Source of the DNA: a virus
Taxonomy: Duplodnaviria > Caudoviricetes
DNA length: 56,391 nt
IMG/VR virus record: IMGVR_UViG_3300011271_000006
Location: 1-56,391 of that record
Strand: one strand, 5' to 3'
Shown: one piece after another, positions 1 through 56,391 of the stretch
How the letters are laid out: the number at the start of each line of letters is the position of its first letter
Numbering within the stretch: the first letter of the stretch is position 1
Notes under the pieces: model-generated
What the model saw: the letters and a program-made list of their open reading frames with translations, nothing else
What the model was told of the DNA's origin: nothing
The model's database searches: none
Translations under genes and position numbers: made by a program

Positions 1-123
1 CCGCTGATATAACAGTAGCACCAGCAAATTTTACGCTTCCTGTTGTACAAAGTACATCACTACCAATAGTGCATCCACCTATAGCTAATGATGTTCCGGT
101 AGCAACACCTAATGCAGGAGTAA
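1..123. repeat. Terminal direct repeat, left copy (circularisation overlap)
   Basis: 1-123 (ccgctgatat...gcaggagtaa) is identical to 56269-56391 and lies inside one continuous reading frame. Confidence 0.97.
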
Positions 124-2971
124 TTAATGAGGGATTTGTTTGCATTACTGCAACTGTGCCAGTTCCAGTTAACGTATATTCTCCTAATACACCAGCATTA
201 TCATATAATATGCGTGTAGTTGTACCGCTAGTTATAGCTGTAGTACCGACTACCAAACTAGAGCTACCTCCACCACTACTACCACACGAGAATAGGTCAG
301 TTGATTGAGTATAATTTAAATGATTACCACCAGTATCTATGCAATTAGGAATAACCTTCCATGTTGGTACACCAGCTACATCAACTGGAACTGCGTGAGT
401 TAAAGGTGAACTTGACATATTTGCTAATGGTCCTAATACTATGGGAGCATTATAAGTACCATAATAAAACCCACCATTATATATAAATCCACCTACTGAT
501 AATGTAACATTACTAGAAGTAGTTGCTGTTGTAGATGATGTAATAGGTCCACTTGGACCCGAAATTTGAGAAGTTGAAGAAATTACAGAACCAGGAGGTA
601 TATTAGCTGCAACTATAGCTAAACCACGATAACCAATTGCTCCCATATATTTAGTTGCATATTCGTTAACAGCATCAAAATCAGCTTGGTTTAAAGCAAT
701 AGTATTACTGCCTGCTGTAAAAGTTGCTGATGTAAGACTAAGAACTACACCAGGAAGCCCAAGCAAAGTCGGTCCTGATCCTGTATCTGTTCCATCATTA
801 AGTGCAGCAGCAGGACCAACTAAAGCAAATGGAGGACCGTTATTTTGTGCTACTCCACCACCATCATTTAAAAAGCTTGAGGCATTAGTAGCTAAGAATG
901 CACCTTGATCAAGAGTAACAAAACCTGACAAATATCCAGAAACACCATTTATAGTTAATCCTGATGCAAAAAAGATTTGTGTTTTTTGATCAGATTGAAT
1001 AAAAGCACCTGATGGTTTTGTAAACACTACATTTTTAGCTGATCCTCCATCGCTAGCAATAGTAGTCTTATCAATAGTTATAGTAGTTCCAGTAACATTT
1101 GTAATTTTAGCAAATGGAGGAATACGAGAATAAATTGCTAATCCAATTGGAACAGAAGCATTAGTTACTTGTGTTACAACATCACCAATTGCTAATCCAG
1201 TGTTATTATTAACAATTATAGTAGTAGCAGTAATATTCCATGTTGCAGTTTTAAGATTTTGTGTTTTATTAATTATTATTCCAGTTCCAGCAAAACTAAG
1301 ATTGCTTAAATAACCAGGATTAATATCATTAAAACCTGTAGCATTAGGACCAAAAACAGTATTACTGCCTACAATTAATATATCATTAATGCCAGTTAGT
1401 GTAACCATATCATTACTACTTAAAGAACCATCAAGTGTAACATTTGAAATAGTTAAATGTGCTCCACCAGAAAGAAAAACTGTTCTTTCCGTGGTAGGTT
1501 GAACAACATATAAGGATGGAGTTGTAGTATTACCAGTAAGAATAATTTTAGTTGCGTCACTTTGTCCTGTAAGCGAACCATTAGCATTAATTCCAGTAGT
1601 ATAAGTACCAGCAGCAAATATAAAGGTAACTTGAAATCCATTAAAGTTATAACCTTTAGCCTTTTGCCATGCTCCTGCAAATGTTAGACATGGAGTTATA
1701 TTACTTATGCAATCATTAGAATTGCTACCTGTTGTCGATATATAAAATATTACATTAGAATTTGCTTCAATTATACCTGTATTAACAGTTGAAATTATAT
1801 TTCCAGTACATAATAAACCACTTCCACAAACAATAACTCCTGTCATTCCTCCAATCGATAATACACCAGTAGCAATTGCACTATTTGTATCAGGAGTAGT
1901 TTTAATTATATAATTTAATGAAATAGATGGTTGAATTCGACTAATTGGTGTTGATGGACTTGAGGCATTAACAGCATTATTACTTGCTACTGCACCTGAA
2001 CTATCAATATTATTTACAACAGTATGTGGTGTTCCCGCTCCATCTAAAGTAGCTATTTGATTATATTTTATTGTTAAAGGTGGTATGTTATTAGCAATAA
2101 GTGCTACTTGTTGATTACCACCAATAGCACCTTGTCCTGTAGGATCAATACCAAAATTAGTTGAACTAATTAATCCTCGATCTGTACCGCCCATATTTGG
2201 GCGACCGATAATTACTTGGTCACGAAGATCAGGGACATTGAATGTAGTTGTAGTATTACCATTACCAAATGGAAAAAATACAGCAGAAGAACTTAAAGTT
2301 ACACTTGATGTATTGCTAAGAGTAACTGTTGAAGCTGTTTTGGATAAAACAGTAGTTGTAGGAGTGACACAACTTACTTCAACTCTTGAACCTACTGAAA
2401 CTGAAGTTGTATCAGCAACGCCAGTTAAAATAGCACTTCCAGAAGTACAATTAACATTAAGAGTTTGGGTAATTGCAGTTAATAGATCAGGAAAATTAAC
2501 TCGTATTAATTCTTGACCAGCAGCAAATACATATTGATTAGGAGCAGCTATGCCAGCCCAAGGCTTGATTGTACCAACTAGATCGCCATCCCCTGTTGCT
2601 GGTGTTGATCCTCCTGAACCACCGGGCGCAGTAACAGCGTCCCAAATTATATTTCCATTTCGATCCTTAACAAGTTGCCTATAGGTTCCTTGACCATATA
2701 TACCAGCGTTGCTACCAGAAGGCTTACCACCAGCATCTAGGACAATTGGATTAGTCCAAGGAACAGTTTCTAAACTATCCTTCCAAACAGTCTTTAATGT
2801 TGGAGTAGCAGGAATATAAAATGTAACTGTACCGGCAGAAAGAGGCTTACCATTGTTATCGAAATATTGTTGAAGTGCATTAGGAAGTAATGAGGCTGTT
2901 TGAGCTAAGGCATAATCAATTTGGCAAATAAATAATAACAAATAAAGGAAATATTTAATGTTGGATTTCAT
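1..2971 (-). CDS. Tail fibre/tailspike, 5' part; continues across the junction into 56268..55001 (about 1412 aa in total)
   Basis: ATG at 2971 gives MKSNIKYFLYLLLFICQIDYALAQTASLLPNALQQYFDNNGKPLSAGTVTFYIP..TNPIVLDAGG (P22-type head-binding-like), then a tail-collar motif GTIKPWAG..FNVPDLR. The ORF track reports no stop in this frame and the frame matches the 55001-55984 ORF through the repeat. Confidence 0.88.
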   Translation of the reverse strand, partial: MKSNIKYFLYLLLFICQIDYALAQTASLLPNALQQYFDNNGKPLSAGTVTFYIPATPTLKTVWKDSLETVPWTNPIVLDAGGKPSGSNAGIYGQGTYRQLVKDRNGNIIWDAVTAPGGSGGSTPATGDGDLVGTIKPWAGIAAPNQYVFAAGQELIRVNFPDLLTAITQTLNVNCTSGSAILTGVADTTSVSVGSRVEVSCVTPTTTVLSKTASTVTLSNTSSVTLSSSAVFFPFGNGNTTTTFNVPDLRDQVIIGRPNMGGTDRGLISSTNFGIDPTGQGAIGGNQQVALIANNIPPLTIKYNQIATLDGAGTPHTVVNNIDSSGAVASNNAVNASSPSTPISRIQPSISLNYIIKTTPDTNSAIATGVLSIGGMTGVIVCGSGLLCTGNIISTVNTGIIEANSNVIFYISTTGSNSNDCISNITPCLTFAGAWQKAKGYNFNGFQVTFIFAAGTYTTGINANGSLTGQSDATKIILTGNTTTPSLYVVQPTTERTVFLSGGAHLTISNVTLDGSLSSNDMVTLTGINDILIVGSNTVFGPNATGFNDINPGYLSNLSFAGTGIIINKTQNLKTATWNITATTIIVNNNTGLAIGDVVTQVTNASVPIGLAIYSRIPPFAKITNVTGTTITIDKTTIASDGGSAKNVVFTKPSGAFIQSDQKTQIFFASGLTINGVSGYLSGFVTLDQGAFLATNASSFLNDGGGVAQNNGPPFALVGPAAALNDGTDTGSGPTLLGLPGVVLSLTSATFTAGSNTIALNQADFDAVNEYATKYMGAIGYRGLAIVAANIPPGSVISSTSQISGPSGPITSSTTATTSSNVTLSVGGFIYNGGFYYGTYNAPIVLGPLANMSSSPLTHAVPVDVAGVPTWKVIPNCIDTGGNHLNYTQSTDLFSCGSSGGGSSSLVVGTTAITSGTTTRILYDNAGVLGEYTLTGTGTVAVMQTNPSLITPALGVATGTSLAIGGCTIGSDVLCTTGSVKFAGATVISA

Positions 2972-5040: not shown

Positions 5041-5041
5041 G

Positions 5042-8437: not shown

Positions 8438-8775
8438 TTAATTACCGCTCCATAAACAGGAATAAACTTCACTGTTGGTAATCCTGTATATGTAATTTTG
8501 ATAATATCATCTATTGAAACTGGAATTAATTTAACACCAGTTACATCAATGCTTACACTACCACGAGTTAAAGTGATTGCTGATACTACACCACCAGCAA
8601 TCGAAACATATCCAGGTTCTTTAGCTGTATATGAAAATGGTGAAACTCCTACAATAATAGCTAAAAATTTAGGTGGAGCTTGGGTAAATTGTTGAAGATA
8701 GCTATTCCAAGGTGAAACAATTGTTCCAGTTACTTTATTAACAAAAGGTGAAGATTGATTAGGTAAGGGTTGCAT
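8434..8775 (-). CDS. Putative virion protein
   Basis: 113 aa, beta-rich, coupled to the gp10-like gene. Confidence 0.55.
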   Translation of the reverse strand: MQPLPNQSSPFVNKVTGTIVSPWNSYLQQFTQAPPKFLAIIVGVSPFSYTAKEPGYVSIAGGVVSAITLTRGSVSIDVTGVKLIPVSIDDIIKITYTGLPTVKFIPVYGAVIK

Positions 8776-14890: not shown

Positions 14891-15840
14891 AATAAAAAGG
14901 GGTTATAGTCAACGGGTGTGATCTTAGGTTTCTTCCTATCTTCAAACTCAGGAGTATGATCAACTGGTGTAACACCAGCAGAGAAAAGTGGAAAGCCTTC
15001 TTTCAAAGCTTTAGCTTTTAATTCCGGTGTGAGTTTAAGGACATGAATAGTTTGCTTACCTACAATTGGTTTTAATTCACCACCATATTTTTCAGCTAAA
15101 GCTTTACTTCCATATTTACTTATAGCTTCTTTAAAAGTTTCTCCATTATGCATAGCATTAGCTATATCTGTTAATTGACTATCTTCCCTAGCTGTTAATT
15201 TTAATTTATCAGATTTAGATTTTAATTCATTAATATCCAAATCAGGACCATTATATTCATATCTTAAATCACTTACTTTTTGAATTTCCTTCTGCTCAAC
15301 CTTACTACCATATTTCTTAGATATTGCATTAGCTTTAGCAACTAACATATCATCATAGAACTTCATCATACCTTCACCACCAACTTTAAGATCAAGACCT
15401 GATAGAAAATGAATTTCTTTATTAGGACTTTTATCAGTTGGTGAATTAATAAGTTTATCAGCAGCTTCTTTACCTACATAATCAGTTAATTTATCAGGTC
15501 CAACTTGTTCACGAATTACAACTTTCCCATTATGATCTTTAGCTTGTAAATCATTATTAGTTTTATTCCAACGTAATTCAGTTATTTGCTTACTTAAATC
15601 ATATCTAGCTGCTTGTGCTTCACCAGGGGTCCAACTGATCGCGTCCTTATTTTCCTCCACTGCTTGTCGAATAACTCGCTTTAATAATAAATCAGGCCAA
15701 GAGGTTTTGAATGGAGCGTTAGGTAAATTTTGAACATCAGGAATAAATTTATATGCTTCAGAAGGCAACATTTTTTCTAGCTCTTTAGCTAATTCATCTT
15801 GTGTATATTCTTTACCCTTATATTCAAATCTACATGCCAT
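14887..15840 (-). CDS. Large-polyvalent-protein-type domain, C-terminal half
   Basis: PNAPFK.SW..L.LKR....AVE...DAISWTPG..QA.RYDLSKQI and LKVGGEGM..FYD motifs. Confidence 0.65.
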   Translation of the reverse strand: MACRFEYKGKEYTQDELAKELEKMLPSEAYKFIPDVQNLPNAPFKTSWPDLLLKRVIRQAVEENKDAISWTPGEAQAARYDLSKQITELRWNKTNNDLQAKDHNGKVVIREQVGPDKLTDYVGKEAADKLINSPTDKSPNKEIHFLSGLDLKVGGEGMMKFYDDMLVAKANAISKKYGSKVEQKEIQKVSDLRYEYNGPDLDINELKSKSDKLKLTAREDSQLTDIANAMHNGETFKEAISKYGSKALAEKYGGELKPIVGKQTIHVLKLTPELKAKALKEGFPLFSAGVTPVDHTPEFEDRKKPKITPVDYNPFLL

Positions 15841-16489
15841 TGTAAAATCTCAAAGACGTATTATTAGTTCTATGACCCGAAAGCATGTTATATAAAGTTT
15901 TCATTTTTAAATTATAATTATCAACAGCCTTTCCCACACTCGGGTAAACTTGTTTTGTAAAATCATCAATTACTTTTCTAGCAACTTTGGTAATTTTACC
16001 ATAATTAGGATTTTTATCACTTAATTTAGCTAAAGCTAAATTATCTCGCCATGACTGAGGAAGTTTATCATCACGCTTTACAACACCACCATTACCGTCA
16101 TTCTTTCGAGCAACGCGAATAGCTGAAATCCAAGCTTCTGATCTAAAACCACTAGCCGCAATACTTCTTTTCTTTCTTAATTCATCAGATATAGTTAATC
16201 CACAAAAACTTTCGCTACCATCAGTTAAATTAACAAGATTTTCACGACCTATTATAGCTATAATTTCTTTTTCTAATCGTTGCGCTTCTTCATCAGTTTT
16301 ACAATTAGCTATTACATTAATTATAATACCATGTTTATTAACAATATTTTTCCAATGATTATTACTATGAGTCTCGCGCGCTCTATTATAATTATGAATT
16401 TTGTCTTTAGCGCGATGTGAGCCTTTACCAACATAAAAAGGCATTCCATCGCTGGCTTTAAAATGAATATAAACGTAATGTCGCCACAT
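15830..16489 (-). mobile_element. Free-standing GIY-YIG-type homing endonuclease
   Basis: YVYIH....G.PFYVGKG..RA, A..LE..II, LVNLTDG, with NUMOD-like C-terminal segments; likely ATG at 16489. Confidence 0.8.
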
Positions 16490-16490
16490 G

Positions 16491-17717
16491 CTAATCACAA
16501 ATCTTTTTAATTACACCAGCTTGTATCATACGATCAGTAATGTTGTCAAAATCTTTATTTATAGCTTCTTTAATTTTTATACTTTCGCGTCTATGACCCT
16601 GCCCAAAATCACTTTGTATTTCTTCAATATGTAAACTCTTTCCTACTCCTGGTATATCTCTATCATTCATACGAATATGAGCTAAGACATTAGGTTCATC
16701 CCAATGTGAGGTTTTGAAAGTTTCACTTATATTACCTTCTTTTCGATCAAAACTATCAGCGACCGCTTGTGCTTCCCATTCCTTATTATATTGACCAAAT
16801 TTCTCACCATTGGGCCTTAAAACCTTATAATAACCACCTTCATTTATAATTTTATTTTGAGCACCTTTTCGCTCAGGCAACTGTAACAACAATTCCCTAT
16901 AACTATTACCACCAGAAAGTTGCCATTGAGAATATTTAGGCGAATTAAAATTATCAGGATCAGAAGTTGAACCTCCCTTCCAAACCTCATTCAATCTAAC
17001 CTTATTATCAGCAATATGTTGCTCTAATTGCTGTTTTGTAATCTGACCTTTAGGTAAGCTTTCTAAATTAGTCCAAGCTAATTCCTCTTGTCTAATTCCA
17101 GGTTGATTTTTAAGAAAACCTAACCATTGCTCGGCTGTAGCTGAATTCTGCTTAGCATTGCTTACAGCCTTTTCAACTGTGGAAAAAAAAGTAGGAGCGA
17201 CTTCACCAGTCATTTGTTTACCCATTTGTCTAACCATTCCACTACCTAATGATACTATTCCAGCTTTCATCGCTAAAGGACCACCACCGGCCATACCAGC
17301 AATATCTTGTGCTCGCTGAATTCCTTCCTCACTTAAAGGATCAACTTCACCACTATAAACTTGACCAGGAAGTGTAGCAGCACTTCGCACCATTCTCTCA
17401 GGCCAAATTTGATAACGATTTTCACCAATCAAAGCTTTACCATATTCCTTAACAGGAGCTTGACTAGCCGCTACATCTTCAGGACTAGCTTGCCTAATAG
17501 GTTGTCTAGCTCGCATACGAGCAGCTACAGCTTCCCAAGGATTATAAACTAATTCAGGTGGTGTTTCAACTGGAAGCGCAAAAGATTGAGCTTGAGATTG
17601 AATAGTTTGAGAACTAACTACAGGATATAAAGGATTAACTGTATCGTCGCCAGTAGGTTCATTCTCACCAGCTTGATAATACGGTAAACCTTCTTCAGTA
17701 TATTGAAGCTTAGCCAT
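16491..17717 (-). CDS. Large-polyvalent-protein-type domain, N-terminal half
   Basis: KYSQWQL.GG..YRELLL.LP and SHWDEPNVLAHIRMNDR....K.LHIEEIQSD motifs. Confidence 0.65.
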   Translation of the reverse strand: MAKLQYTEEGLPYYQAGENEPTGDDTVNPLYPVVSSQTIQSQAQSFALPVETPPELVYNPWEAVAARMRARQPIRQASPEDVAASQAPVKEYGKALIGENRYQIWPERMVRSAATLPGQVYSGEVDPLSEEGIQRAQDIAGMAGGGPLAMKAGIVSLGSGMVRQMGKQMTGEVAPTFFSTVEKAVSNAKQNSATAEQWLGFLKNQPGIRQEELAWTNLESLPKGQITKQQLEQHIADNKVRLNEVWKGGSTSDPDNFNSPKYSQWQLSGGNSYRELLLQLPERKGAQNKIINEGGYYKVLRPNGEKFGQYNKEWEAQAVADSFDRKEGNISETFKTSHWDEPNVLAHIRMNDRDIPGVGKSLHIEEIQSDFGQGHRRESIKIKEAINKDFDNITDRMIQAGVIKKICD

Positions 17718-20086
17718 TACTCAACTCTAGAATATTTTCCAGGTTCATGTTCGATATAATAATTTCCATCCTTAGCCTTCCTAGCTCCCTCTATCGGTGG
17801 TTGTTCCTCAGTTCCTTTTCCATTTGGCTTTCCCTGCCCATTAGAAGCCTGTAGGCTCGCTTGTTCTGCCGCCAATTCTGCGGCCGTCTTGATGCCGATT
17901 TCCTCACCAGCGCCCGGCTCACCAGCATTCAACATACCCCTAACCAGCATTTGCACTATAGGCTGTATCTGTTCAACTGATATAGCAGGACCACTATTTC
18001 CTAAAGAAGTTAATCGCCGCGTCTCAGCTTCATAATCAAGCCTAGCTGCTTCTGCTTCAGCTTCCTTACGTCTTAAATCAAGCTCTTGTGCTTTAATATC
18101 CAACTCTTTATCTTTATCAGCTAAATCTTTGGCTTTTTGACCTAACAACGTTGTTAACTGTTGTATCTTATCACTCGCCTGATGCATAACTTGTTCAGTT
18201 TGAGGATCAGGTGCATCACCTGTTATATTAGGAGGAATAAGCTTTTTATATCGCTCAGCTAATACATCAGCTTGCGGAAAATCAAGCATTTTAAAGAAGA
18301 TATCACCACCAACATTCATAAATTCTTTATTTGCTTGTGCTAATTGTGTTAATGCTTGTGCAGCTTCCATACGCTTAGTAGCATAGCTTGGACCTGTATC
18401 AGCTTGAATATCATATATCCCAAAATTAGGATTAAAAGCAATTTCAATAACTTGTTGATCCTTATCCATCATAGGCTGTTGAGGATTACCACCTTTAACC
18501 ATTTCTTGTTGTAATTCAGGATCAATAGTAACATTCATTATACTTCCATCGCTCGCCATAATCCTCTTAACACGTTTAGTGTCATAAATCTTAGGAATAA
18601 GATCAATCAATATCTTGCCAGTATAACGAATAGCAATAGCGAGATTATCAATAAAGTGGTAAGTAGCTCTATCACCTTGTCTTTGACGCGCATTAATTGC
18701 GATACCTGATTTAGCATTTTCATTTTCACCTAATTGAGCTTGATATTGCCCACTCGCCATCATCATTTCATTTTGAGCAATCTTTAATCCTTCTGTATAA
18801 GCCAATCCAGGTTGCGGAGGCTGTGGGCGAGAAGGCGGCGGAATAGATTGACCATCTTCCCCCATATGATTATATGGCAAATAACTATGATTAGTAGTAT
18901 TCGCCGTTTTATAATATTCCTCAAATCCCTCTATTGCGTCAACAGGAGCAATCCAAGGTGCTTTAGTTTGTAAAGCTCCATATTCAACATTCGCCGATGT
19001 ATTGTAGTTATAGATTTGCTGAGCATTAATTAATGATCGTGTGTGCCCCTTACGATCAAGAATGCCATCAATAACAGTTTCAGTACCAATTAAACGTACT
19101 ATAGGAATATATTTACCTAACCATTCTCTTTCTTGAATAATTCTATCGCCAGCTATTTTATACCATTTAATATTATCAGTTAAAACCTTACGTTCCTGAA
19201 ATTTGTAGGCAACTCGATTTTCAGGAAATCCCTTGATTGCTTTATATGTCAGCTTTTCAACATCATTTAATTCACTCAAATATTTAATTATTTGTTCACG
19301 AGTATCGGGCTTTATCCATGCAACAAGTTTATCCTTTTCTTGTGTTTTCTTAAAATATTCACAAACTCTTACATTATCTTTAGTGATCCAACCATCAGTA
19401 CCACCATTATTCAATGTTGTCTGACCAGCTATTGAAGCGAATTCAGGATATTCTTCTTCAAATAATTCCTTTGGCATATCCTCGAATATAAAACCATATC
19501 GAGCGTCTGAACCATCAACCTCATTGATAAATTTATCCAAATAGACTGATCTAGGGTCTTTAATACGTCTTATATAAATTTCTTGATCAAAACTCTTGCT
19601 ACCAATCCAATCTGTATCAACTCGCCAATAACCAACACCAGCTTGTACTTGTGTTACTGTCGCACTATCATAAACATTTTCAGCACTTGAAATATATTCA
19701 ATATGATAAATTAATTCCTGAAAAACTTGTGCTCCCTCAAATGATGCATCATCCCCAACAGGTCTAATTCTGACACCCGGCTTATTTTGCTTGGCGTCAT
19801 TAATAATCATCAAATTGTGTTGAGCAGTTTTATTGATAGTAAGACAAGGCCGATCCTCTAATTCACGCCTTAGAACTAGATCACTATCCCATTGATATTT
19901 ATTGTGGGTATCTCCATTTGCAAATTTGATATCATATTCATATAACAAACGAGCATTATTTTCCCATTCCTCACATTCTTTATAAAGCTTTTTAGCTTCA
20001 ATAATTAATTGATTTTCTTCCTCTGTTTGCTTAGGAGGTTCTTTCCATTCGCTTGACCACATATCAGGCATTACGCGCCCATCCAA
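17717..20086 (-). CDS. Portal protein, P22-like
   Basis: RPCLTINK, N..SGIAI.ARQ.QGD...YHFIDNL, YDI..DTGPSYATKR.EA. Confidence 0.92.
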   Translation of the reverse strand: MDGRVMPDMWSSEWKEPPKQTEEENQLIIEAKKLYKECEEWENNARLLYEYDIKFANGDTHNKYQWDSDLVLRRELEDRPCLTINKTAQHNLMIINDAKQNKPGVRIRPVGDDASFEGAQVFQELIYHIEYISSAENVYDSATVTQVQAGVGYWRVDTDWIGSKSFDQEIYIRRIKDPRSVYLDKFINEVDGSDARYGFIFEDMPKELFEEEYPEFASIAGQTTLNNGGTDGWITKDNVRVCEYFKKTQEKDKLVAWIKPDTREQIIKYLSELNDVEKLTYKAIKGFPENRVAYKFQERKVLTDNIKWYKIAGDRIIQEREWLGKYIPIVRLIGTETVIDGILDRKGHTRSLINAQQIYNYNTSANVEYGALQTKAPWIAPVDAIEGFEEYYKTANTTNHSYLPYNHMGEDGQSIPPPSRPQPPQPGLAYTEGLKIAQNEMMMASGQYQAQLGENENAKSGIAINARQRQGDRATYHFIDNLAIAIRYTGKILIDLIPKIYDTKRVKRIMASDGSIMNVTIDPELQQEMVKGGNPQQPMMDKDQQVIEIAFNPNFGIYDIQADTGPSYATKRMEAAQALTQLAQANKEFMNVGGDIFFKMLDFPQADVLAERYKKLIPPNITGDAPDPQTEQVMHQASDKIQQLTTLLGQKAKDLADKDKELDIKAQELDLRRKEAEAEAARLDYEAETRRLTSLGNSGPAISVEQIQPIVQMLVRGMLNAGEPGAGEEIGIKTAAELAAEQASLQASNGQGKPNGKGTEEQPPIEGARKAKDGNYYIEHEPGKYSRVE

Positions 20087-21432
20087 CCCGTACTACTATG
20101 CAGTGAAATATGTCTTGTGCCACTGGTAACATTTCTAACTTTCTTCGAAGCCGTTTCAGTCTTCAAAGATTGAGCAAATGTCATGAAAGCATCACTACCA
20201 TGGCTATATTGATCATGCTTAGGCTCTTTGCTAAATTGACCATTTTCAGGATCAACAGCATAACAATAACGCCTTAGACATTGCATACCATCAGCGGTAT
20301 TCAATTCATCAAAATTACATAATGGAAATACTGTTCTAGCAGCATTAATAGCATTTACCTTTTTATTGATGCGAGCAACAATCCTAGTTTTATGACCAGC
20401 AGCCCTAATAATTGCATCAATACTTCTACTTGCTAATGTTTCATCTTTTGCATCATGTGGTAGATAGTGCAACTCATAAATATATTTCTTATCTTGTAAT
20501 ATCTGTAGATAATGACCAACTTTTTTTAAATTATTCTGATAAAAATCAATAACATTAAATTCCATTCCTACTCGTTGAATAAACCAAATAGCAGTCTGAT
20601 CGCTATGTCCCAAGTCCCAAGCTGTAAAAACTGGTCTTTGAGGATCATAAGGTACTTTTCCTAATCGACCATCTAAAATTAGTTGATGAATTTCATCAGC
20701 AAAAATCGCTCCATCAAGCACTTGTTTAGTATGACCTTCCCATACTTCTAACCAACGATTTTTATCCTTCGCTCGTAACTGTTCCATTTCCTCTCGAAGA
20801 TCATCAGGAAACCAAGGATTATCAGACCAATTCACTTTCTCAATAATCGCATAACGATTACCATGTTTATCAAATTGATTAGGAGGTTCTAATACAAAAC
20901 GCTTATATGTTTCATCACTATCGAGTTCAGGGTTAAAACTAACCCAAATTTCTGGCCCTTTACCAAATGGCCCTAGATTGCCTCTAGGATCACTTTCATG
21001 GCGGCCACGAATAGTAGGACCAAGTTTGTCCCATGAAGTCTTTGAAACTGTATTAGCTTCCTCAACCCAAGCTAAATCAATTGCAGCCATCGATTTGATA
21101 GCTTCAATATTATACCTGATGCCTTTGAATATAAATTCTGAACCTGTTCTTTTTGATATTATGTTCTTATCATTAATTGCAAACTCATTCTCTAAACCCA
21201 TTGTATAGATTTGTTCTTTTAAATTTTCATGAACACTTTCAGCAATAGAATTTTGAAATTCACGAAAGCACGCTATGCGAAGTTTCTTTGTTGAAGCTAA
21301 AATAATTAAGGCACGAGCAAATCCGATAGTCTTTCCGGCGCCACGACCACCATAGGCAACTTTATATCGAGCCGACTCAGTTAATAAAAACTGAAGCTTT
21401 TCAAGAAATTCAATTTCTTGTTCATTATTCAT
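20071..21432 (-). CDS. terL: Terminase large subunit (PBSX-like)
   Basis: YGGRGAGKT Walker A, WVEEA Walker B, nuclease motifs WDLG and SHGSDAF. Confidence 0.95.
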   Translation of the reverse strand: MNNEQEIEFLEKLQFLLTESARYKVAYGGRGAGKTIGFARALIILASTKKLRIACFREFQNSIAESVHENLKEQIYTMGLENEFAINDKNIISKRTGSEFIFKGIRYNIEAIKSMAAIDLAWVEEANTVSKTSWDKLGPTIRGRHESDPRGNLGPFGKGPEIWVSFNPELDSDETYKRFVLEPPNQFDKHGNRYAIIEKVNWSDNPWFPDDLREEMEQLRAKDKNRWLEVWEGHTKQVLDGAIFADEIHQLILDGRLGKVPYDPQRPVFTAWDLGHSDQTAIWFIQRVGMEFNVIDFYQNNLKKVGHYLQILQDKKYIYELHYLPHDAKDETLASRSIDAIIRAAGHKTRIVARINKKVNAINAARTVFPLCNFDELNTADGMQCLRRYCYAVDPENGQFSKEPKHDQYSHGSDAFMTFAQSLKTETASKKVRNVTSGTRHISLHSSTGWMGA

Positions 21433-21446: not shown

Positions 21447-21911
21447 TTAGAATTGAACATACGAAATTGAACCTTGAGCAATGATGCTTCCACTGCTTAT
21501 AGCACACAAAGCATTGCCTATCGGTATATACAAAACAGTTCCTAATCCATTACCTTTAGTAAATACAGTTGAAGTACCAAAAGTGTAAGTACCAGTTAAA
21601 TCATGTTGACCAGTGCCACAATTAGTTCCTGTCCCATAAACCCATTTAAATGTGCCTCCTGCACTACTAACTAAATCCCAAGATGTTACATAAATAGTTT
21701 GACCTGTAACAGCAGCTACAATTTGTGTAGTTGTAGCTGAAGAAATTGCTATAGGTAAACTATTAGACGCTGCCACAGCTTGAGCGCAATTACTCCCATT
21801 CGTTGTATAACAAAGAGCATTAGGCGATTGAGCAGAAGCAAAATTGGCGCCTAAAAACAGCGCCACTGTCACTAAAATTCCCAATAAGCATTTCATATTG
21901 ATAACCCTCAT
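21447..21911 (-). CDS. Secreted-type small beta protein with a signal peptide
   Basis: MKCLLGILVTVALFLGANFASA/QSP; four Cys in the mature part; Ser/Thr/Gly-rich. Confidence 0.7.
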   Translation of the reverse strand: MRVINMKCLLGILVTVALFLGANFASAQSPNALCYTTNGSNCAQAVAASNSLPIAISSATTTQIVAAVTGQTIYVTSWDLVSSAGGTFKWVYGTGTNCGTGQHDLTGTYTFGTSTVFTKGNGLGTVLYIPIGNALCAISSGSIIAQGSISYVQF

Positions 21912-22339
21912 TAAGAAATCTTTGCACCAGCATTAGAGTACCAAGCAGCAACACCAGCAGAACTAACAGAAAGACAATAATAATCACTTCTTTTTGCTGC
22001 CGCTTGTGCAACACCTATAGCAGTAGCTACACCATCAATCGTATCATTATTAGCACCAAAAACTTGAGCACTTTGAGCACCGTCATTTATAACAACAACT
22101 TGTGCACCAGCAGAAGGTTTAGATGGAAGTTTTACACTATCACCACCAGTGGCACAAATTGAAATTCTATTTAAACTTGCTGTTAATTGGTATGCGTTTG
22201 TTTTACCTCCACCGGCTTTAGCTGTTATAGTATCCTCAAAACTTAATCCAGTATAAGGACCGCCAAATAAAGAATTAAGAGATTGACCATTAATTAATCG
22301 AAAACCACGCGGAAATAAAGTAACAAATGTTCCAGCCAT
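21911..22339 (-). CDS. Putative capsid decoration / minor structural protein
   Basis: 142 aa, Ala/Gly-rich: ITAKAGGG..NA.QL, DSVKLP, INDGA....VF. Confidence 0.5.
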   Translation of the reverse strand: MAGTFVTLFPRGFRLINGQSLNSLFGGPYTGLSFEDTITAKAGGGKTNAYQLTASLNRISICATGGDSVKLPSKPSAGAQVVVINDGAQSAQVFGANNDTIDGVATAIGVAQAAAKRSDYYCLSVSSAGVAAWYSNAGAKIS

Positions 22340-22404
22340 AATTCAGTCCTTTCTTTGTTTCTTTAAGTTCTTAATGTATCATATATGTTTTATAATAAAT
22401 CCAT

Positions 22405-23478
22405 TCAGCTTGAAGAAGTAAATATGAAAATATCGCTCCTATTCCAAGCAAGATAACCGCAAACAAATAAAGCCACACAAGCCGAAACAGGCAAATGAAA
22501 CGGAAAATCAAAAATCGAGATAACAATAAATGACCCCACAATATACCTTTCATTTCGTTGTGTTCGCATTACAAGAGTGAAAAAAGCTATCGCTAATATT
22601 GCCCCTATAATCCCAAGCTCAAATAAAATCTGCAACAAATCATTGTGGGCAAACATTGGTTTAGTATATATATTATATAGACTATACATACTAAACGAAT
22701 TTAAACCCCAACCAAACCAAGTTACATGCTCTAAAATATCCTTCCAAATTTTTATCCGATAATAGGTACTATCAACTTTATCATCATTATAATAGTAAGT
22801 TAAAAGAATTATGGCAACAGTTATCAAACTCAACAAGCAGACTGTAATTATTTTAGATTTACTCCAACACCAGAAACTAAACATAACTCCTAAAGTAAAT
22901 ACAGCATTTCTACTTCCATTTAAAATAATTGAAGGCAATATAAATGGAATATACCACCATAATCTATAAACACATAAGCCGATAAGAACTATAACAGCAG
23001 TTTCAGCTAATGTATTTACATTAATAAATAAACCTCCCTTCATCCCAAACAGTATCAAAAAGTTTGATGCAATAATTCCTAATCCTAATCCTTTGAATAT
23101 TGACTTTAGCGAAGTTAAAAACGCTCCTAATATGAAGGCTTCTGCTAATATCAATAATTTAATTAGTTCATAAATTGCCTGATTATTATAAGTCCAACTA
23201 ATTGACCATCCGGCATAAATTATAAATAATAAGCCAATGAAATGAACTAAAGTAAATCTAATCTCTCTATATAACCAAATCAAACCAATCAAACAAAGTG
23301 GAAATGTCACTGAAGCAAAAGCCCATCTTGGTGAAGTAGGAGCACCACTAATATATGGCACATAAATTATAGCCAATAAGAAAGCGAGATAAGCCCCGAT
23401 AAAATCCAATCGAGGCTTATCACTTTGCGTAGTTAATGAATTCGATACCATGTGGTATTGGTTTGGCGATAAACCCAT
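22405..23478 (-). CDS. O-antigen ligase / O-oligosaccharyltransferase family (Wzy_C) membrane protein
   Basis: About 10 hydrophobic segments; GSRNA, R..IW......WFGWG..SF, AHND.LQ...ELG.IG and FPFH.P motifs. The true start may be a few codons downstream. Confidence 0.85.
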   Translation of the reverse strand: MGLSPNQYHMVSNSLTTQSDKPRLDFIGAYLAFLLAIIYVPYISGAPTSPRWAFASVTFPLCLIGLIWLYREIRFTLVHFIGLLFIIYAGWSISWTYNNQAIYELIKLLILAEAFILGAFLTSLKSIFKGLGLGIIASNFLILFGMKGGLFINVNTLAETAVIVLIGLCVYRLWWYIPFILPSIILNGSRNAVFTLGVMFSFWCWSKSKIITVCLLSLITVAIILLTYYYNDDKVDSTYYRIKIWKDILEHVTWFGWGLNSFSMYSLYNIYTKPMFAHNDLLQILFELGIIGAILAIAFFTLVMRTQRNERYIVGSFIVISIFDFPFHLPVSACVALFVCGYLAWNRSDIFIFTSSS

Positions 23479-24002
23479 TCAGGACATGAAGCAGCACCAG
23501 TAGTCGAAGGAACCGACAAGGCAGTTACACCACCACTTAATATAGTCCCTGATCCAGCCGTCATTGTAAGGGCAGTAACAATCTGTGTAGTACAAATACC
23601 AAATGTTTGATTGTCAACAAGCATTGTAGCAGGATCAAGCAAAACAGTTAATGCGGCAATAGTGCCAGAAGGTTCAAGGATCAATCTCCGCGCTAATGGA
23701 TTTTGAGGAATTACTTGACCATTAACAGCAGCTACGTACTGATAAGGACCAACACCAAGGTTCTGAAGTGAAAGTTTAACAGTCTGTGGGGATTGACCAC
23801 CAGAAGCATTAGTATCTGCCGGAATAGTTTCACTACCAGTCAAGGCAGGACCAGCAGGTACGGTATTAACGCAAACAGCGTTAACCGAACTAGAACAAAA
23901 AGATGATCCACCTACAATCGGATAAGGAAACCATTGCTGTGCAACACCAATACTAATAATAGAAACAACAGCAAATAAAGTCAAACTTAATTTCTTAAGC
24001 AT
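23433..24002 (-). CDS. Secreted-type protein with a signal peptide
   Basis: MLKKLSLTLFAVVSIISIGVA/QQW; four Cys; ends ..WVY....TTWYRI like fibre-type domains. Confidence 0.7.
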   Translation of the reverse strand: MLKKLSLTLFAVVSIISIGVAQQWFPYPIVGGSSFCSSSVNAVCVNTVPAGPALTGSETIPADTNASGGQSPQTVKLSLQNLGVGPYQYVAAVNGQVIPQNPLARRLILEPSGTIAALTVLLDPATMLVDNQTFGICTTQIVTALTMTAGSGTILSGGVTALSVPSTTGAASCPEWVYRQTNTTWYRIH

Positions 24003-24064: not shown

Positions 24065-24661
24065 CTACTTAACTAACTTTAATTTCATAGGCAAAGGAGT
24101 AATCTCTGCTTCTGGTTTCTCAAAAGCATCTTGCTCAATCATTTCTTGTTTTTCTTGTTCAGGCTTTACAAATTTTATAGTCATAAAATTGTTACTAAGT
24201 TTTGTGCTCGCATCAATATCAATTTTAGTCCCAATATAACCCCTAATTTCAGCATAAAGCTTGTATGCAGATAATCTATCCTTACTTTCATGAATAAAGA
24301 AGCGACCATCAGGGGATTTTTCCTCGCTGAATTCGAGCAGTCTCACAGCGAGTGCATCTTTGTCAAGCAATTTTGTTTCTTGCTCGATTTCTTGCGCATA
24401 GGTGTCTCTAGCTGCGATCACAACAGGATCATTCAGCCAATTAACACTTACCCATAATGCTTTGTTGGTGTCTTTACCAAAGACTGCACAAGCGGCGTTA
24501 AACGGCTTAAAATGTTTGCTTAATTCGACACCAAATTGGCGTTTTAGAGCTTCATCGCGTCGCCAAGGTTGATCAATCTCAGGTGGTGAGCCCCACGAGC
24601 TAGGTAGCTCAACTTGAAAGATATCTTGGCGACCGAATGGCATAGAAACGCCGCTTAGCAT
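24065..24661 (-). CDS. Hypothetical protein, possible terminase small subunit
   Basis: 198 aa, helical, first gene of the late cluster, with an IDID...TIKFV tail; the call is positional only. Confidence 0.4.
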   Translation of the reverse strand: MLSGVSMPFGRQDIFQVELPSSWGSPPEIDQPWRRDEALKRQFGVELSKHFKPFNAACAVFGKDTNKALWVSVNWLNDPVVIAARDTYAQEIEQETKLLDKDALAVRLLEFSEEKSPDGRFFIHESKDRLSAYKLYAEIRGYIGTKIDIDASTKLSNNFMTIKFVKPEQEKQEMIEQDAFEKPEAEITPLPMKLKLVK

Positions 24662-25439: not shown

Positions 25440-25518
25440 TGGTAGGAGCCCTCGGATTTGAACCGAGAATATCACTGCGTTTTAGGCGCAGTCGCTTTGC
25501 CAATTTGCGTAGGCTCCC
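25440..25518 (-). tRNA. tRNA-Leu(UAA) with a short variable region and encoded CCA
   Basis: GGGAGCC/GGCTCCT acceptor stem, D-loop TGG, anticodon arm CTGCG-CCTAAAA-CGCAG, T arm CTCGG-TTCAAAT-CCGAG, ACCA end. Confidence 0.88.
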
Positions 25519-26676: not shown

Positions 26677-26937
26677 TCATTCTTTTTTAGGTTCAGTTGC
26701 AGTTGGTTTCTGCTCAACTAGCTTCTGTTGCTCCATCACTTGCGCACGAAGCTTGTTGATCAGGGGAGCTACATCATTGAACGGCATCGAGCCTAAACCC
26801 TTACCAATCAAGTCAACTTCAGCAGGAGTAACTTTCAAGCTGAATTCTTGTGGCTGTTGAGCTTGGACAGGCGAAACTACTACAAGTTCAAGAGCCAATT
26901 GAATAAATATAAAGCCAATTCGAGGATTATTATTCAT
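26677..26937 (-). CDS. Hypothetical protein with a signal-like N-terminus
   Basis: VVVSPVQA/QQ, then LGSMPFNDVAPLINKLR.Q. Confidence 0.55.
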   Translation of the reverse strand: MNNNPRIGFIFIQLALELVVVSPVQAQQPQEFSLKVTPAEVDLIGKGLGSMPFNDVAPLINKLRAQVMEQQKLVEQKPTATEPKKE

Positions 26938-36156: not shown

Positions 36157-36399
36157 TTGACAACAGTTTCTAAGCATGAAATAAACAGTTTACCAAAGCA
36201 GGAATCTAGAAAAATGTTAAAATTAACCAAAGCTCAAAGAAACTGGTTAATCTCTATGAACCGGCATAGGCAATGGATTATAGGTCCAGGACGCAAAATG
36301 CGATATTTTCTCACCTCAAATGGTTTAATTGAACAAAACAAAGAAGGTGCATGGAGAATAACACAAAAAGGAATTAACTTAATAACTCCATCTTCCTAA
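36157..36399 (+). CDS. Small winged-helix-like hypothetical protein
   Basis: Likely start MLKLTKAQ; L...GLIE......WRIT.KG pattern. Confidence 0.5.
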   Translation: MTTVSKHEINSLPKQESRKMLKLTKAQRNWLISMNRHRQWIIGPGRKMRYFLTSNGLIEQNKEGAWRITQKGINLITPSS

Positions 36400-53591: not shown

Positions 53592-53900
53592 TTAAATTGT
53601 AGGAGGAGTAGCATTTTCTTTTGCCACTTTTGCAAGATCAGGATCAAGAATAGTAATTGTATTTCCCTTAACTTCTGTTGCATTCATTTTAGCAACTGAT
53701 GCGATAGTGTTGGCTTGAGTATGAATATAAATACCCCAAGCAACAGGAGCGATCATAAGAAGTCCACCAGCTATAGGTTGCCATTGTGCTCCCGTGATTA
53801 ATCCATAGGTAGTCAAAAATGTACCAATAATTTGTAATGCATCACGAACAATACTCATAAATTGATCTGAGTTCATTTTATCCGTCCTTTCATTAGACAA
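53592..53900 (-). CDS. Putative holin
   Basis: Two TM segments, directly downstream of the endolysin gene. Confidence 0.65.
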   Translation of the reverse strand: MSNERTDKMNSDQFMSIVRDALQIIGTFLTTYGLITGAQWQPIAGGLLMIAPVAWGIYIHTQANTIASVAKMNATEVKGNTITILDPDLAKVAKENATPPTI

Positions 53901-55000: not shown

Positions 55001-56391
55001 TCATTGATTTATTGCACGTTTAATATTTTCAATTTCAATTCGTAGATTATCGTTATCAGCTTTTAAATATTTAAATGCTGCTGTTAAAGCCGCTGTGTAT
55101 TGCTCGTAACGAAAGCCTGCTAAACTTCCATCATGATTATGAGCAACAATAGGTTTAGCAATATCAATCTTGTCAGCAAAATCAGCTATAAATCCTATTT
55201 GTTCATCAGCAACCCAAGTTGCTAAATCTTTTTTCATTGTATATCGCCATGGTTCCATCGCCATGACAATATCAAATCCTTCTTTAGGAGTAAGAGGCGA
55301 TTTCAAATCTTTTGCACTAAGTAGCGATACAGTGCATGTTCCAATTGTTCCATCGAAAGTTAAAACAAATGTACTTGTATTATAACAAACAGCGCTCGTC
55401 GTTGCAGCATTAGCCATTGCAGCAACTTTCAATGTTGTGTTTACATAAACACTTCCCGTTCCTTGAGGAACAAGTTTCAGATCAATGTTAGTATCAGAAC
55501 CGGCAGCACTTATCAATGGGGGATTGCCGGTTGCTGCTGATCCAAATGTAGGATAGTTAACTGCGCTCGCTACAGGAACAAATTGTGCTAAATTAGCAGC
55601 ACCACCAGCCGATAGAAGACTAATATTTGCAACACCTTTAGTCTCTAAAAAGTATCCAACATTAGCATCAGCACCAGTAGCTTGAATAATTGGATAATTT
55701 CCAGCAATATTACTGGAAATTTGCATATAATTAACACGATTAGCAGCGCTAATAATTTGCATTGCTGTTGATGTACCGGGACCACCGAATGTCCAAATAC
55801 TATTATTTTCATTTAATGTACCAGTCCCATTACCCCAATTAATTGTTGTATTGTCAGCAAGATTTAAAGCTGAAAATCCTAATGAGGTTGTTCCTAATGG
55901 AACTGTATTATTGGCACTTGGATTAAGTGATGTTATAATTGATAGAGCATTTATAGAAACAGCACCAGTATTAGAAACAGTCATTTGGTTGCTAGTACCG
56001 ATTTTTGCACTATCAGCACCTAATGCCCATTTGTTAGTTAATGTAATATTTGTGCCAGCTATAGGATCAATAAAATAAGAACCAAAATAATTAGTAAAAG
56101 TAGTTGCTAATGACGCTGCTATCGTATTTGCTCCCCATACATCAGTATAAGCCGTCGCTACTGTTCCGCTAGAAGATGTATCAGTTAATGTAGCAGCTAT
56201 GTTTTTATATCGAACACCATTTGTAGTCCAAGCTGCACTTGATATATTACCGCTTAATCCAAAACTAGCCGCTGATATAACAGTAGCACCAGCAAATTTT
56301 ACGCTTCCTGTTGTACAAAGTACATCACTACCAATAGTGCATCCACCTATAGCTAATGATGTTCCGGTAGCAACACCTAATGCAGGAGTAA
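55001..56391 (-). CDS. Tail fibre, 3' part, with a C-terminal intramolecular chaperone (peptidase S74-like)
   Basis: The frame is open from 56391 to 55001. S...K, EP.RY, IGFIAD and Y....A.L..A.K.L coiled-coil motifs are present. Confidence 0.85.
   Translation of the reverse strand, partial: TPALGVATGTSLAIGGCTIGSDVLCTTGSVKFAGATVISAASFGLSGNISSAAWTTNGVRYKNIAATLTDTSSSGTVATAYTDVWGANTIAASLATTFTNYFGSYFIDPIAGTNITLTNKWALGADSAKIGTSNQMTVSNTGAVSINALSIITSLNPSANNTVPLGTTSLGFSALNLADNTTINWGNGTGTLNENNSIWTFGGPGTSTAMQIISAANRVNYMQISSNIAGNYPIIQATGADANVGYFLETKGVANISLLSAGGAANLAQFVPVASAVNYPTFGSAATGNPPLISAAGSDTNIDLKLVPQGTGSVYVNTTLKVAAMANAATTSAVCYNTSTFVLTFDGTIGTCTVSLLSAKDLKSPLTPKEGFDIVMAMEPWRYTMKKDLATWVADEQIGFIADFADKIDIAKPIVAHNHDGSLAGFRYEQYTAALTAAFKYLKADNDNLRIEIENIKRAINQ
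56269..56391. repeat. Terminal direct repeat, right copy
   Basis: Identical to 1-123. Confidence 0.97.

Follow-up and report, generated by a model that had tools for sequence, protein, structure and literature searches.

We found that a complete, uncultured soil phage of the P22-like podovirus type (56.4 kb; the whole stretch of 56,391 nucleotides that we analyzed is called the window) encodes a predicted Wzy_C-family membrane enzyme next to genes for exported, disulfide-type tip proteins, and that its tail fiber itself has gained a cleavable signal peptide. Judging from its sequence, this catalytically intact-looking enzyme is fixed in the late structural operons of several uncultured phage lineages. 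The reading that we favor, albeit tentatively, is that it may be a late periplasmic transferase of glycans linked to undecaprenyl pyrophosphate (Und-PP), acting on the co-encoded exported fiber-like proteins. Nothing like this cassette was found in print.

The cassette consists of four tightly packed minus-strand genes at positions 21447 to 24002, encoding sp189, the Wzy_C enzyme, p142, and sp154. These genes, their borders, and the other genes relevant here are as follows (a slash marks the predicted signal peptide cleavage).

24065..24661, minus strand: terS, small terminase, the upstream border of the cassette (phrog_5334, E=1.2e-17; syntenic in 7 related loci)
23433..24002, minus strand: sp189, Sec-signal protein (N terminus MLKK...IGVA, cleavage at about GVA/QQW, 4 Cys)
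22405..23478, minus strand: Wzy_C-family polytopic membrane enzyme (PF04932, E=1.8e-10)
21911..22339, minus strand: p142, small protein without a signal peptide (no family match)
21447..21911, minus strand: sp154, second Sec-signal protein (...FASA/QSP, 4 Cys in the mature part)
20071..21432, minus strand: terL, large terminase, the downstream border of the cassette (PF04466, E=6.4e-42; phrog_3717)
1..2971, minus strand: N-terminal 990 aa of the tail fiber (signal peptide MKSN...YALA/QT, conserved fiber N-terminal domain, Collar domain)
55001..56391, minus strand: C-terminal part of the tail fiber (weak Peptidase_S74 match, E=0.0089, below the cut-off)
26677..26937, minus strand: additional small signal-peptide protein of 86 aa (VQA/QQ; no Pfam family)

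With terL directly downstream and terS directly upstream, the cassette lies between the two terminase genes, a detail that was absent from the original prediction. All genes from terS to terL are on the same strand and either overlap or are separated by at most 65 nt. Much of what had been predicted was recovered here: the four minus-strand genes upstream of terL, the two signal-peptide proteins with four cysteines each, the polytopic Wzy_C-type enzyme with its AHND motif, the signal-peptide tail fiber, and the Ser/Thr richness of both secreted-type proteins (Ser+Thr fractions of 0.21 in sp189 and 0.23 in sp154, with 0.22 in the fiber, versus 0.128 in the proteome). Also as predicted, PHROG and Pfam scans of the other ORFs detected no glycosyltransferase or sugar-synthesis gene; neither an integrase nor a repressor was seen in these scans. 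Signal peptides were called with a crude hydropathy rule of our own making rather than with SignalP. Terminator-like sites were no more frequent in the cassette region than in shuffled sequences (4 versus 3.6), and a combined promoter and terminator scan, whose scope leaves out Bacteroidota promoters, returned nothing above shuffles. When 8 kb was compared with deposited phages by blastn, the sole match was 88 bases of the portal gene. Two sequencing runs contained the sequence, both from soil metagenomes that may be its origin, and no RNA run was among them.

The sequence of the 357-aa enzyme places it, as an intact protein, in the Wzy_C (WaaL/PglL/Wzy) family. It is 348 aa long if started from the second Met (at 23451), and its gene overlaps the end of the sp189 gene by 46 or 19 nt, depending on the start. 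Residues 181 to 296 align with positions 7 to 148 of the Pfam Wzy_C model PF04932 at 41.2 bits (cut-off, 31.7; E=1.8e-10), and the same model scores 50.4 bits in a six-frame search. The FAHND motif occupies residues 276 to 280. H278, N279, D280, E287, and G289 are kept in 53 of 53 viral homologues that share only 18 to 34% identity with the window enzyme, R241 is kept in 52 of them, and R190 in 43. The invariance of H-N-D, E, and Arg over such divergent proteins argues for a kept catalytic site and not a mere scaffold. Our own hydropathy script, used instead of a dedicated topology predictor, gave about 10 to 11 hydrophobic segments, nine passing the threshold and two to three added by eye. 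The K/R-rich loops alternate according to the positive-inside rule, which places R190, R241, and H278 on the predicted periplasmic side, the latter two in a 61-aa loop (residues 227 to 287). The protein is thus probably a periplasm-facing glycan transferase.

The enzyme resembles WaaL in its Pfam Wzy_C domain, its many transmembrane helices, and a large predicted periplasmic loop with conserved Arg and His. In Escherichia coli WaaL, the Wzy_C motif contains R215, R288, and H338, which are also conserved in PglL (PMC3643930, excerpt). The phage protein has an R...R...H pattern in its Wzy_C region, matched to these residues through the Pfam region alone, and its spacing differs (51 and 37 residues between R190, R241, and H278, versus 73 and 50 in E. 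coli WaaL as given in the accessible part of PMC3643930), in keeping with a shorter loop. Unlike WaaL, it had no profile match to any solved chain: searches of the PDB with profiles of 16 and 53 homologues returned neither WaaL nor any other chain at E<=10. Its gene also lies outside any lipopolysaccharide (LPS) core or O-antigen locus, in a late operon between terS and terL. PF04932 was the only Pfam match at E<=0.1, and PglL_A (PF15864) was not among the matches. A single-sequence search of viral contigs and bacterial genomes yielded no close relatives, tblastn against 50,697 deposited phage records, which presumably include D3, gave no similarity at E<=1e-3, and NCBIfam and PADLOC returned nothing meaningful for any of the four cassette proteins.

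The tail fiber gene starts at 2971 and spans a 123-bp terminal repeat; with one repeat copy removed, it encodes 1,412 aa. The protein has a Phage Tail Collar domain above the cut-off (E=4.8e-8) and a weak endosialidase-chaperone match at its C terminus. Its signal peptide is found in nine records, i.e., in the window and in homologues from 8 other related records, where it is conserved in kind but not in sequence, and it is absent from 16 distant homologues. Its predicted cleavage would generate an N terminus matching the start of those 16 signal-less proteins. Wzy_C was found in 6 of the 9 records with signal-peptide fibers, compared with none of the 16 with signal-less fibers. When the fiber N-terminal domain was searched for in bacterial genomes, two matches in metagenome-assembled genomes (MAGs) were obtained, which were uninformative about the host.

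The sp189 protein is composed of an N-terminal Cys-loop region followed by a C-terminal beta domain ending in W-Y-R-x-(Q/H), which its sequence relationships identify as a tail-fiber tip domain that is likely to be receptor binding. This domain has 4,012 representatives at E<=1e-3. Among the best 150 of these, all 18 proteins of at least 400 aa carry the domain and 17 of the 18 lack a signal peptide, whereas 93 of 112 short members have one. In most of the long proteins, the domain ends at or a few residues from the C terminus, the exceptions being P0109, P0148, and P0182 (internal) and P0165 (N-terminal); five of the 18 match PHROG tail-fiber or virion-structural families, and a fusion in locus L028 matches phrog_4492 (tail fiber). 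The Atlas structural neighbors of sp189 are viral Mtd_N, T4 gp9/10, and depolymerase-C clusters (TM 0.46 to 0.60). No Pfam family covers the domain, its weak StcE beta-sandwich matches being below the cut-off, and the best hit in a PDB profile search, a "Tailspike protein" chain (7rfv_A, E=0.15), was not significant. A D-T-N-A-S string in sp189 was considered as an N-glycosylation sequon and dropped, as it is not conserved across the sp189 family.

Relatives of the enzyme were found in 63 viral contigs of at least three phage lineages, among late genes wherever these were examined. Same-strand genes with a predicted signal peptide are concentrated around wzy: over 64 loci, they make up 46 of 124 genes at distance 1 (37%) and 29 of 118 at distance 2, compared with 27 of 452 (about 6%) at distance 3 or more (odds ratio, 7.1; p=8e-18, a value that overstates independence because the loci are related). 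At least one such gene lies within two genes of wzy in 48 of the 64 loci, leaving 16 without a predicted signal-peptide neighbor. When wzy was collapsed at 40% identity, the pattern was kept in 20 of 25 clusters. Hence, the co-occurrence with signal-peptide proteins that had been suggested as a check of the original prediction holds across the 63 viral contigs and survives this collapse. Cysteine counts are even in 57 of 69 signal-peptide neighbors, versus 183 of 402 other proteins, and 46 of 74 have an AXA-like site followed by Q. We are highly confident that the neighbors are truly exported. In Porphyromonas gingivalis phages, signal-peptide proteins obey the Bacteroidetes Q-rule; the accessible part of that report links them neither to a Wzy_C enzyme nor to tail fibers.

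Eleven related loci keep the cassette at the same position. Besides the window, 19 of the 63 loci have an sp189-family gene upstream of wzy. A second lineage, whose head genes are unrelated (L020, L030, and L044), also contains the sp189-wzy-sp154 module, in the order terL, portal (phrog_332), protease, major capsid protein (MCP; phrog_212), module, fiber, and tail tubular proteins; in L011, it lies between the portal and MCP genes. On a tree of 53 enzymes from a non-exhaustive tree search, adjacency to sp189 is clustered (8 changes versus 15.8 in shuffles), as would be expected for kin, and we give this result no weight. On the other hand, G008, a 58.3-kb genome rated 100% complete by CheckV whose terL is 61% identical to that of the window, keeps the exported fiber and five signal-peptide proteins upstream of terL, with no Wzy_C detected by the 16-homologue enzyme profile or PF04932 at E<=1. 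Two MAG contigs, L113 and L114, have sp189-like proteins and no wzy nearby, and the L114 genome had no match to the phage Wzy_C profile. G008 and L114 thus indicate that the exported proteins also occur in the absence of the enzyme.

Wzy_C-family enzymes transfer Und-PP-linked glycans to acceptors in the periplasm. Going by its family, the phage enzyme would take a host glycan built on Und-PP and hand it to a periplasmic acceptor, and the cassette would be a late-expressed extracytoplasmic module. As it has no glycan-synthesis genes, the donor would be a host Und-PP-glycan. The candidate acceptors are the co-encoded Sec-exported, disulfide-bonded, Ser/Thr-rich sp189 and sp154, and possibly the 1,412-aa fiber. 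They are proposed because of the gene neighborhood and by analogy with pilA-tfpO/pilO and comP-pglL; we put forward these neighbors as acceptors with reserve, and with no more confidence in the reading as a whole. The prevailing view is that virion parts of tailed phages are all made in the cytoplasm, and we know of no route by which an exported tailed-phage fiber returns to the particle. Because tailed-phage heads are built in the cytoplasm, the exported parts might, speculatively, have no contact with the P22-like particle until lysis or later. The export signal on the fiber and the position of the enzyme among small exported tip-like proteins together hint that host-recognition parts of the phage may be completed outside the cytoplasm.

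O-oligosaccharyltransferases encoded beside their targets provide the closest comparison, namely, PilO/TfpO with pilin in Pseudomonas aeruginosa and PglL with ComP in Acinetobacter baylyi, with PglL of Neisseria as a further member; 21 of 31 pglL homologues adjoin presumptive target genes (PMC3643930, excerpt). The phage arrangement is similar in that a polytopic Wzy_C-family enzyme and a Sec-exported protein are encoded by adjacent or overlapping genes on the same strand, that glycan-synthesis genes are lacking, and that an Arg/Arg/His pattern is present like the one described in the accessible part of PMC3643930. As with pglL, an exported-protein gene (sp189) is adjacent and co-oriented, which makes sp189 a putative target. 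It differs in that the neighbors are fiber-tip-like beta proteins instead of type IV pilins, that the gene is in a late operon with an enzyme activity that is predicted, and that PglL_A was not detected. This motif separates PglL from WaaL, and PilO also lacks it, according to the same excerpt (PMC3643930).

The idea that the phage exports structural subunits and decorates them, the core of the original prediction, is therefore upheld only in part. The enzyme family, its embedding in a late operon, the co-occurrence, the extracytoplasmic neighbors, the sp189 tip domain, and the fiber signal peptide fit it. A strict coupling is disfavored, since G008 and the MAG contigs hold exported proteins without a phage-type Wzy_C, and neither the missing PglL_A motif nor the sequon content lends it support. 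The host is probably from Bacteroidota; for this probable host group, the sequon D-(S/T)-(A/I/L/V/M/T) was not enriched in the neighbors (39 seen versus 41.5 expected), and none occurs in sp189 or sp154. The broadest form of the proposal, in which a large group of uncultured tailed phages would have their fiber and tip proteins Sec-exported, cleaved (leaving an N-terminal Gln, in Bacteroidota hosts), disulfide-bonded, O-glycosylated with host Und-PP-glycan by a phage WaaL/PglL-like transferase, and joined to the P22-like particle only at lysis, appears unlikely to hold in full.

The main rival, raised in the original prediction as receptor modification and in our view somewhat less likely than the favored reading, is that a WaaL-like ligase or Wzy-like polymerase remodels the host surface late in infection, its substrates being lipid-linked host glycans (LPS, capsule, or the glycoprotein pool). 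One purpose would be to block the adsorption of progeny or competing phages to debris and to the dying cell itself. The exported tip-like proteins would then not be acceptors but partners of the enzyme that, e.g., bind or mask the glycan receptor; the likely receptor-binding tip domain of sp189 would suit such masking. The lack of PglL_A, the lack of a sequon in sp189 and sp154, and the enzyme-free G008 and L114 are all consistent with this, as is the fact that the described phage Wzy_C proteins (D3 Wzy-beta, phi297, and VarioGold VG_p25) act on O-antigen (PMC9658991, excerpt). Like the window enzyme, D3 Wzy-beta (with Iap and Oac) and VG_p25 are phage Wzy_C proteins accompanied by small transmembrane or signal-peptide proteins. 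Their genes, however, belong to temperate phages, lie beside an integrase, are oriented against the late genes, and are thought to be expressed in lysogeny, as described in the accessible portion of PMC9658991. Here, rather than occupying a lysogeny or moron site, the gene is embedded in late packaging and structural operons of at least three lineages, with no integrase in the PHROG and Pfam scans and no tblastn similarity among the deposited records. Surface remodeling would also leave the export of the only recognizable tail fiber of the phage unexplained.

It is improbable, but conceivable, that extracytoplasmic fiber maturation is the core system and Wzy_C an optional accessory that does something other than glycosylate proteins, such as serving as a membrane platform or anchor for exported fiber parts or locally supplying or removing Und-PP-glycan, while the exported proteins assemble with the exported fiber in the periplasm. 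Export signals on fiber and tip proteins both with and without Wzy_C, the even Cys counts that point to disulfide-stabilized extracellular parts, and the signal peptides prevalent in the short sp189-family members among the best 150 representatives would agree with such a role. The invariant H-N-D, E, and Arg residues favor a kept catalytic site instead, and no finding points to a noncatalytic role. It is very improbable that the cassette is simply a moron or a lysogenic-conversion element of the D3 serotype-conversion type (D3 and VarioGold being precedents in the excerpt of PMC9658991) that landed between terS and terL. In favor of this, the four genes interrupt the usual order of terS, terL, and portal, and no wzy lies within 9 kb of any of 23 portal relatives in bacterial genomes. 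Against it are the shared strand and close spacing with the packaging genes, the absence of integrase and repressor from the scans, and a place conserved in 11 related loci and within structural operons of other lineages.

To our knowledge, all previously described phage Wzy_C enzymes function in lysogenic conversion. In a mycobacteriophage study, virion proteins were reportedly glycosylated by phage-encoded soluble cytoplasmic glycosyltransferases. Phage-directed modification of its own structural proteins would be a shared outcome, achieved here by a predicted periplasm-facing transferase of lipid-linked glycans with exported candidate acceptors, unlike the soluble cytoplasmic mycobacteriophage enzymes. 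Abstracts on virion glycosylation retrieved in a literature search likewise concern cytoplasmic mycobacteriophage systems (e.g., PMC11256854). Literature searches found nothing on exported tail fibers or periplasmic virion glycosylation in tailed phages, only VarioGold as relevant to phage Wzy_C with signal peptides or tails, and only filamentous-phage and display work on tailspike signal sequences and the periplasm.

If periplasmic maturation and glycosylation were true, they would give a tailed phage a second assembly line, located in the periplasm, and with it the first phage-encoded oligosaccharyltransferase that acts on virion proteins. Glycosylated neighbors would represent a new route of virion modification bearing on host range, particle stability in soil, and host-glycan camouflage, and the compact, self-contained enzyme-acceptor pair could be of use in glyco-engineering. 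Were the hosts also Bacteroidota, the pair might give a handle on the O-oligosaccharyltransferase or ligase of the general glycosylation system of that phylum, described as still undiscovered in the accessible part of PMC12871550. Exported tail fibers would need explaining even if the enzyme acted on host glycans alone.

The sp154 protein, which has one more Cys within its signal peptide besides the four mature ones, showed no relative in the PDB (profile search) or Pfam and no similarity to sp189. Members of its family immediately follow wzy in L020, L035, L044, and L052, lie near wzy in L006 and L014, and also occur in G008. For p142, which had been called decoration-like, no Pfam, PHROG, NCBIfam, or PADLOC family was found, and the label is not supported by any family search. 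Its 24 homologues are all unnamed or "hypothetical," its Atlas feature neighbors are large viral clusters of 113 to 125 aa, and its family is present in 9 related loci. In a profile-profile comparison of seven neighbor families, matches were confined to signal peptides except for one between the sp189 C-terminal domain and p142, a weak match with an hhalign probability of 28%.

The window was found to be a complete virus record that spans 56,391 bp and carries a 123-bp direct repeat at its termini. Its particle genes are P22-like, comprising a portal (PF16510, E=5e-146), a coat protein (PF11651), and the tail accessory factor gp4 (PF11650), together with head-closure Hc3 and a DNA-ejection protein, and the replication module lies on the opposite strand. 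We found no integrase, glycosyltransferase, or sugar-synthesis gene among the window ORFs in PHROG and Pfam scans. The sequencing runs containing the region were all labelled soil metagenome, which may be its source. A single tRNA-Leu gene (anticodon TAA; 25440-25518, minus strand) is located just upstream of the late operon. The original prediction described a four-gene cassette in the late operon, encoding a Wzy_C-type membrane enzyme among signal-peptide proteins, and this was confirmed as described, with all four genes present on the minus strand and terS and terL as borders (a slash marks the predicted cleavage site):

24065-24661, minus strand: terS (phrog_5334)
23433-24002, minus strand: sp189, a Sec-signal protein (MLKK...GVA/QQW) with 4 Cys
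22405-23478, minus strand: wzy, a polytopic protein of 357 aa that matches Pfam Wzy_C above the cut-off and contains FAHND
21911-22339, minus strand: p142, a small protein with no signal peptide and no family
21447-21911, minus strand: sp154, a Sec-signal protein (...ASA/QSP) with 4 Cys in its mature part
20071-21432, minus strand: terL (PF04466)

The cassette genes overlap or are separated by gaps of at most 65 nt, and terminator-like sites were no commoner than in shuffled sequence. The Ser+Thr fraction was 0.21-0.23 in sp189, sp154, and the tail fibre, compared with 0.128 in the proteome.

To this window we added 63 loci from viral contigs that carry relatives of the enzyme, using crude ORF calling followed by iterative profiles; for all neighbour counts, signal peptides were called by a home-made rule based on hydropathy. 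Same-strand genes were signal-peptide positive in 46/124 cases when adjoining wzy, in 29/118 at distance 2, and in 27/452 farther away (odds ratio, 7.1). The proposed co-occurrence of wzy with signal-peptide genes was thus upheld, with at least one such gene within two genes of wzy in 48 of the 64 loci. Since the loci are related to one another, we collapsed the enzymes at 40% identity, and a signal-peptide neighbour was kept in 20 of the 25 clusters, in all members for 18 of them. The sp189 family was found upstream of wzy in 19 loci besides the window, and the sp154 and p142 families near wzy in six and nine, respectively, again besides the window. The neighbours belong to many families: Pfam gave no family for 69 of the 70 scanned (74 minus 4 duplicates), and a PHROG scan of 61 placed five in any family, with only one named function, tail fibre.

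A window-like order, in which terL and the portal follow closely after wzy, was seen in 11 loci (L002, L004, L005, L007-L010, L012, L013, L019, and L028). In L020, L030, and L044, whose lineage is unrelated to that of the window, the major head protein and the tail tubular proteins flank the module, and in L011 it lies between the portal and the head protein (the PHROG scan of loci covered 94 of the 141 ORFs of nine loci, namely those outside the module and outside L052). From these positions, the module belongs to the late operon in three or more lineages. It is therefore not a lysogeny moron of the kind represented by D3 Wzy-beta or VarioGold VG_p25 (PMC9658991).

Two independent signs indicate that the neighbours are truly exported. 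An even number of Cys, as expected for disulfide-bonded extracytoplasmic proteins, was found in 57 of the 69 Cys-containing neighbours versus 183 of 402 other proteins of the same loci, and 46 of the 74 neighbours have an AXA-like site followed by Gln, which was far commoner there than E, K, D, N, or R. In the window, Gln occupies position +1 in each of the four signal-peptide proteins (A/QQ, A/QS, A/QT, and A/QQ), an observation that also takes in L065-L069 and L071-L073. Gln after the cleavage site is known as the 'Bacteroidetes Q-rule' (PMC5837995), and Q-rule proteins have been reported in Porphyromonas phages (PMC10367356). Together with a G+C content of 35% and a scarcity of SD-like sites, which precede 9 of the 49 window genes, these sites suggest a Bacteroidota host; we infer this host rather than assign it, because most bacterial-genome relatives of the portal belong to high-G+C prophages of proteobacteria.

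The sole recognisable fibre of the window phage (1412 aa), which has a Collar domain and, at its C-terminus, a weak match to a chaperone, also begins with a signal-peptide-like segment. Every homologue from the eight other related records has a signal peptide as well; these differ in sequence and are alike in kind, ending AXA/Q, while 16 more distant homologues start straight at the conserved domain (MASVLLSP...QQYFDNNG); predicted cleavage would give the same native N-terminus as in these 16. Wzy_C was found in 6 of the 9 exported-fibre records versus 0 of the 16 without export, the two groups being different clades and just 3 of the 16 being at least 94% complete.

The sp189 profile matched 4012 cluster representatives at E<=1e-3, a number that fell to 1158 when the threshold was E<=1e-10. 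Among the best 150 of the 4012, 112 were 160-240 aa in size; a signal peptide was predicted in 93 of these short relatives, and the Cys count was even in all but two. Another 18 of the best 150 were at least 400 aa, 17 of them without a signal peptide, and in most of the 18 the sp189 C-terminal domain lies at their own C-terminal end, the exceptions being internal in P0109, P0148, and P0182 and N-terminal in P0165. Five of the 18 had a PHROG tail-fibre or virion-structural match, two had YadA-head repeats, and one had collagen repeats. Because the domain ends long fibre-type relatives, and because the viral structural neighbours of the sp189 Atlas model fall in the Mtd_N, T4 gp9/10, and depolymerase-C clusters (TM, 0.46-0.60), sp189 is, by prediction, an exported, stand-alone version of a tail-fibre tip domain. 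For p142 we found only unnamed relatives, and for sp154 no nameable relative outside these phages. Two long proteins of 472-503 aa, P0017 and P0018, begin with a signal peptide and an N-terminal region of the sp189 type and end in ...SSEP and ...SAEP, respectively.

The enzyme had 16 homologues in a collection of 5.8 billion proteins, several of them on contigs of 43-60 kb, and no relative in deposited phages by tblastn. Among 53 viral homologues, each just 18-34% identical to the window enzyme, H278, N279, D280, E287, and G289 were invariant, and R241 and R190 were kept in 52 and 43, respectively. A hydropathy and positive-inside reading places R190, R241, and H278 on the periplasmic side, the latter two within the largest loop (residues 227-287). 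The three residues required in E. coli WaaL (R215, R288, and H338) fall within the Wzy_C motif and are shared with PglL (PMC3643930). The conservation pattern is consistent with an active member of the Wzy_C family. The enzyme did not match PglL_A in Pfam or any NCBIfam family, and its sequence profiles matched no chain among solved structures. One viral contig, L014, has two divergent Wzy_C genes (4335-5552 and 7875-9098) separated by approximately 2.3 kb and surrounded by genes for signal-peptide proteins of the sp189-like and sp154-like kinds; in a quick tree the copies fall in different branches.

Several results stand against a strict coupling of enzyme and export. The complete relative G008 (58.3 kb) encodes an exported fibre, and upstream of terL five signal-peptide proteins, one of them sp154-like, and neither the phage profile built from enzyme homologues nor PF04932 at E<=1 found a Wzy_C gene in it. 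In the MAG contigs L113 and L114, sp189-like signal-peptide proteins adjoin the terminase without wzy, and the L114 genome had no match to the 53-sequence enzyme profile. In bacterial genomes, 23 relatives of the portal were examined, and none had wzy within 9 kb. The Bacteroidota sequon was not enriched in the neighbours, and neither sp189 nor sp154 contains it. The wider trait is therefore the export of fibre-like proteins, and the enzyme is its frequent but dispensable companion.

The best-supported mechanism is that the enzyme, made late and facing the periplasm, would transfer a host Und-PP-linked glycan. Its most likely acceptors would be the exported fibre-like proteins encoded alongside it, which we regard as quite possible, if short of probable. 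The model is the pairs pilin-TfpO/PilO and ComP-PglL, in which the OTase gene likewise lies beside its target gene; pglL genes adjoined their targets in 21 of 31 cases in PMC3643930. The main rival, which we judge somewhat less likely, is that the enzyme acts on host LPS, capsule, or another lipid-linked glycan, with the exported tip-domain proteins serving in parallel, e.g., as receptor masks. An exported fibre could conceivably join the cytoplasmically assembled head at lysis, because P22 heads can reportedly be completed with tailspikes in vitro. In the open-access literature, we found no description of tailed phages whose fibres are exported or whose virions are glycosylated in the periplasm.

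The structural operon of the window also encodes, between the genes for head closure and those for ejection proteins, an Asp/Asn beta-hydroxylase-family cupin (7895-8437, minus strand; PF05118, E=3e-14) and a GNAT acetyltransferase (7425-7895, minus strand). PF05118 also includes the lipid A hydroxylase LpxO, and the two proteins may be additional enzymes that modify proteins or lipids. A phrog_1249 acetyltransferase is encoded near wzy in L047. No spanin was recognised in the window by PHROG and Pfam scans; its lysis genes (53592-54867, minus strand) encode a GH25 muramidase-DPBB (lytic transglycosylase-like) fusion and a Pam3 gp28-type holin. There are two homing-endonuclease-like genes (15830-16498, minus strand, and 41164-41850, plus strand; phrog_314), the latter GIY-YIG plus NUMOD3. 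The structural operon contains one of them, located downstream of the portal gene with a 408-aa ORF (16491-17717) in between. A primase/helicase of 1110 aa (36374-39706, minus strand) has an intein-like insert at residues ~382-672 with Hom_end-associated Hint and LAGLIDADG domains, and the 821-aa TerL of G008 (L093:6518-8983) has a Hint and LAGLIDADG intein near its N-terminal ATPase motif.
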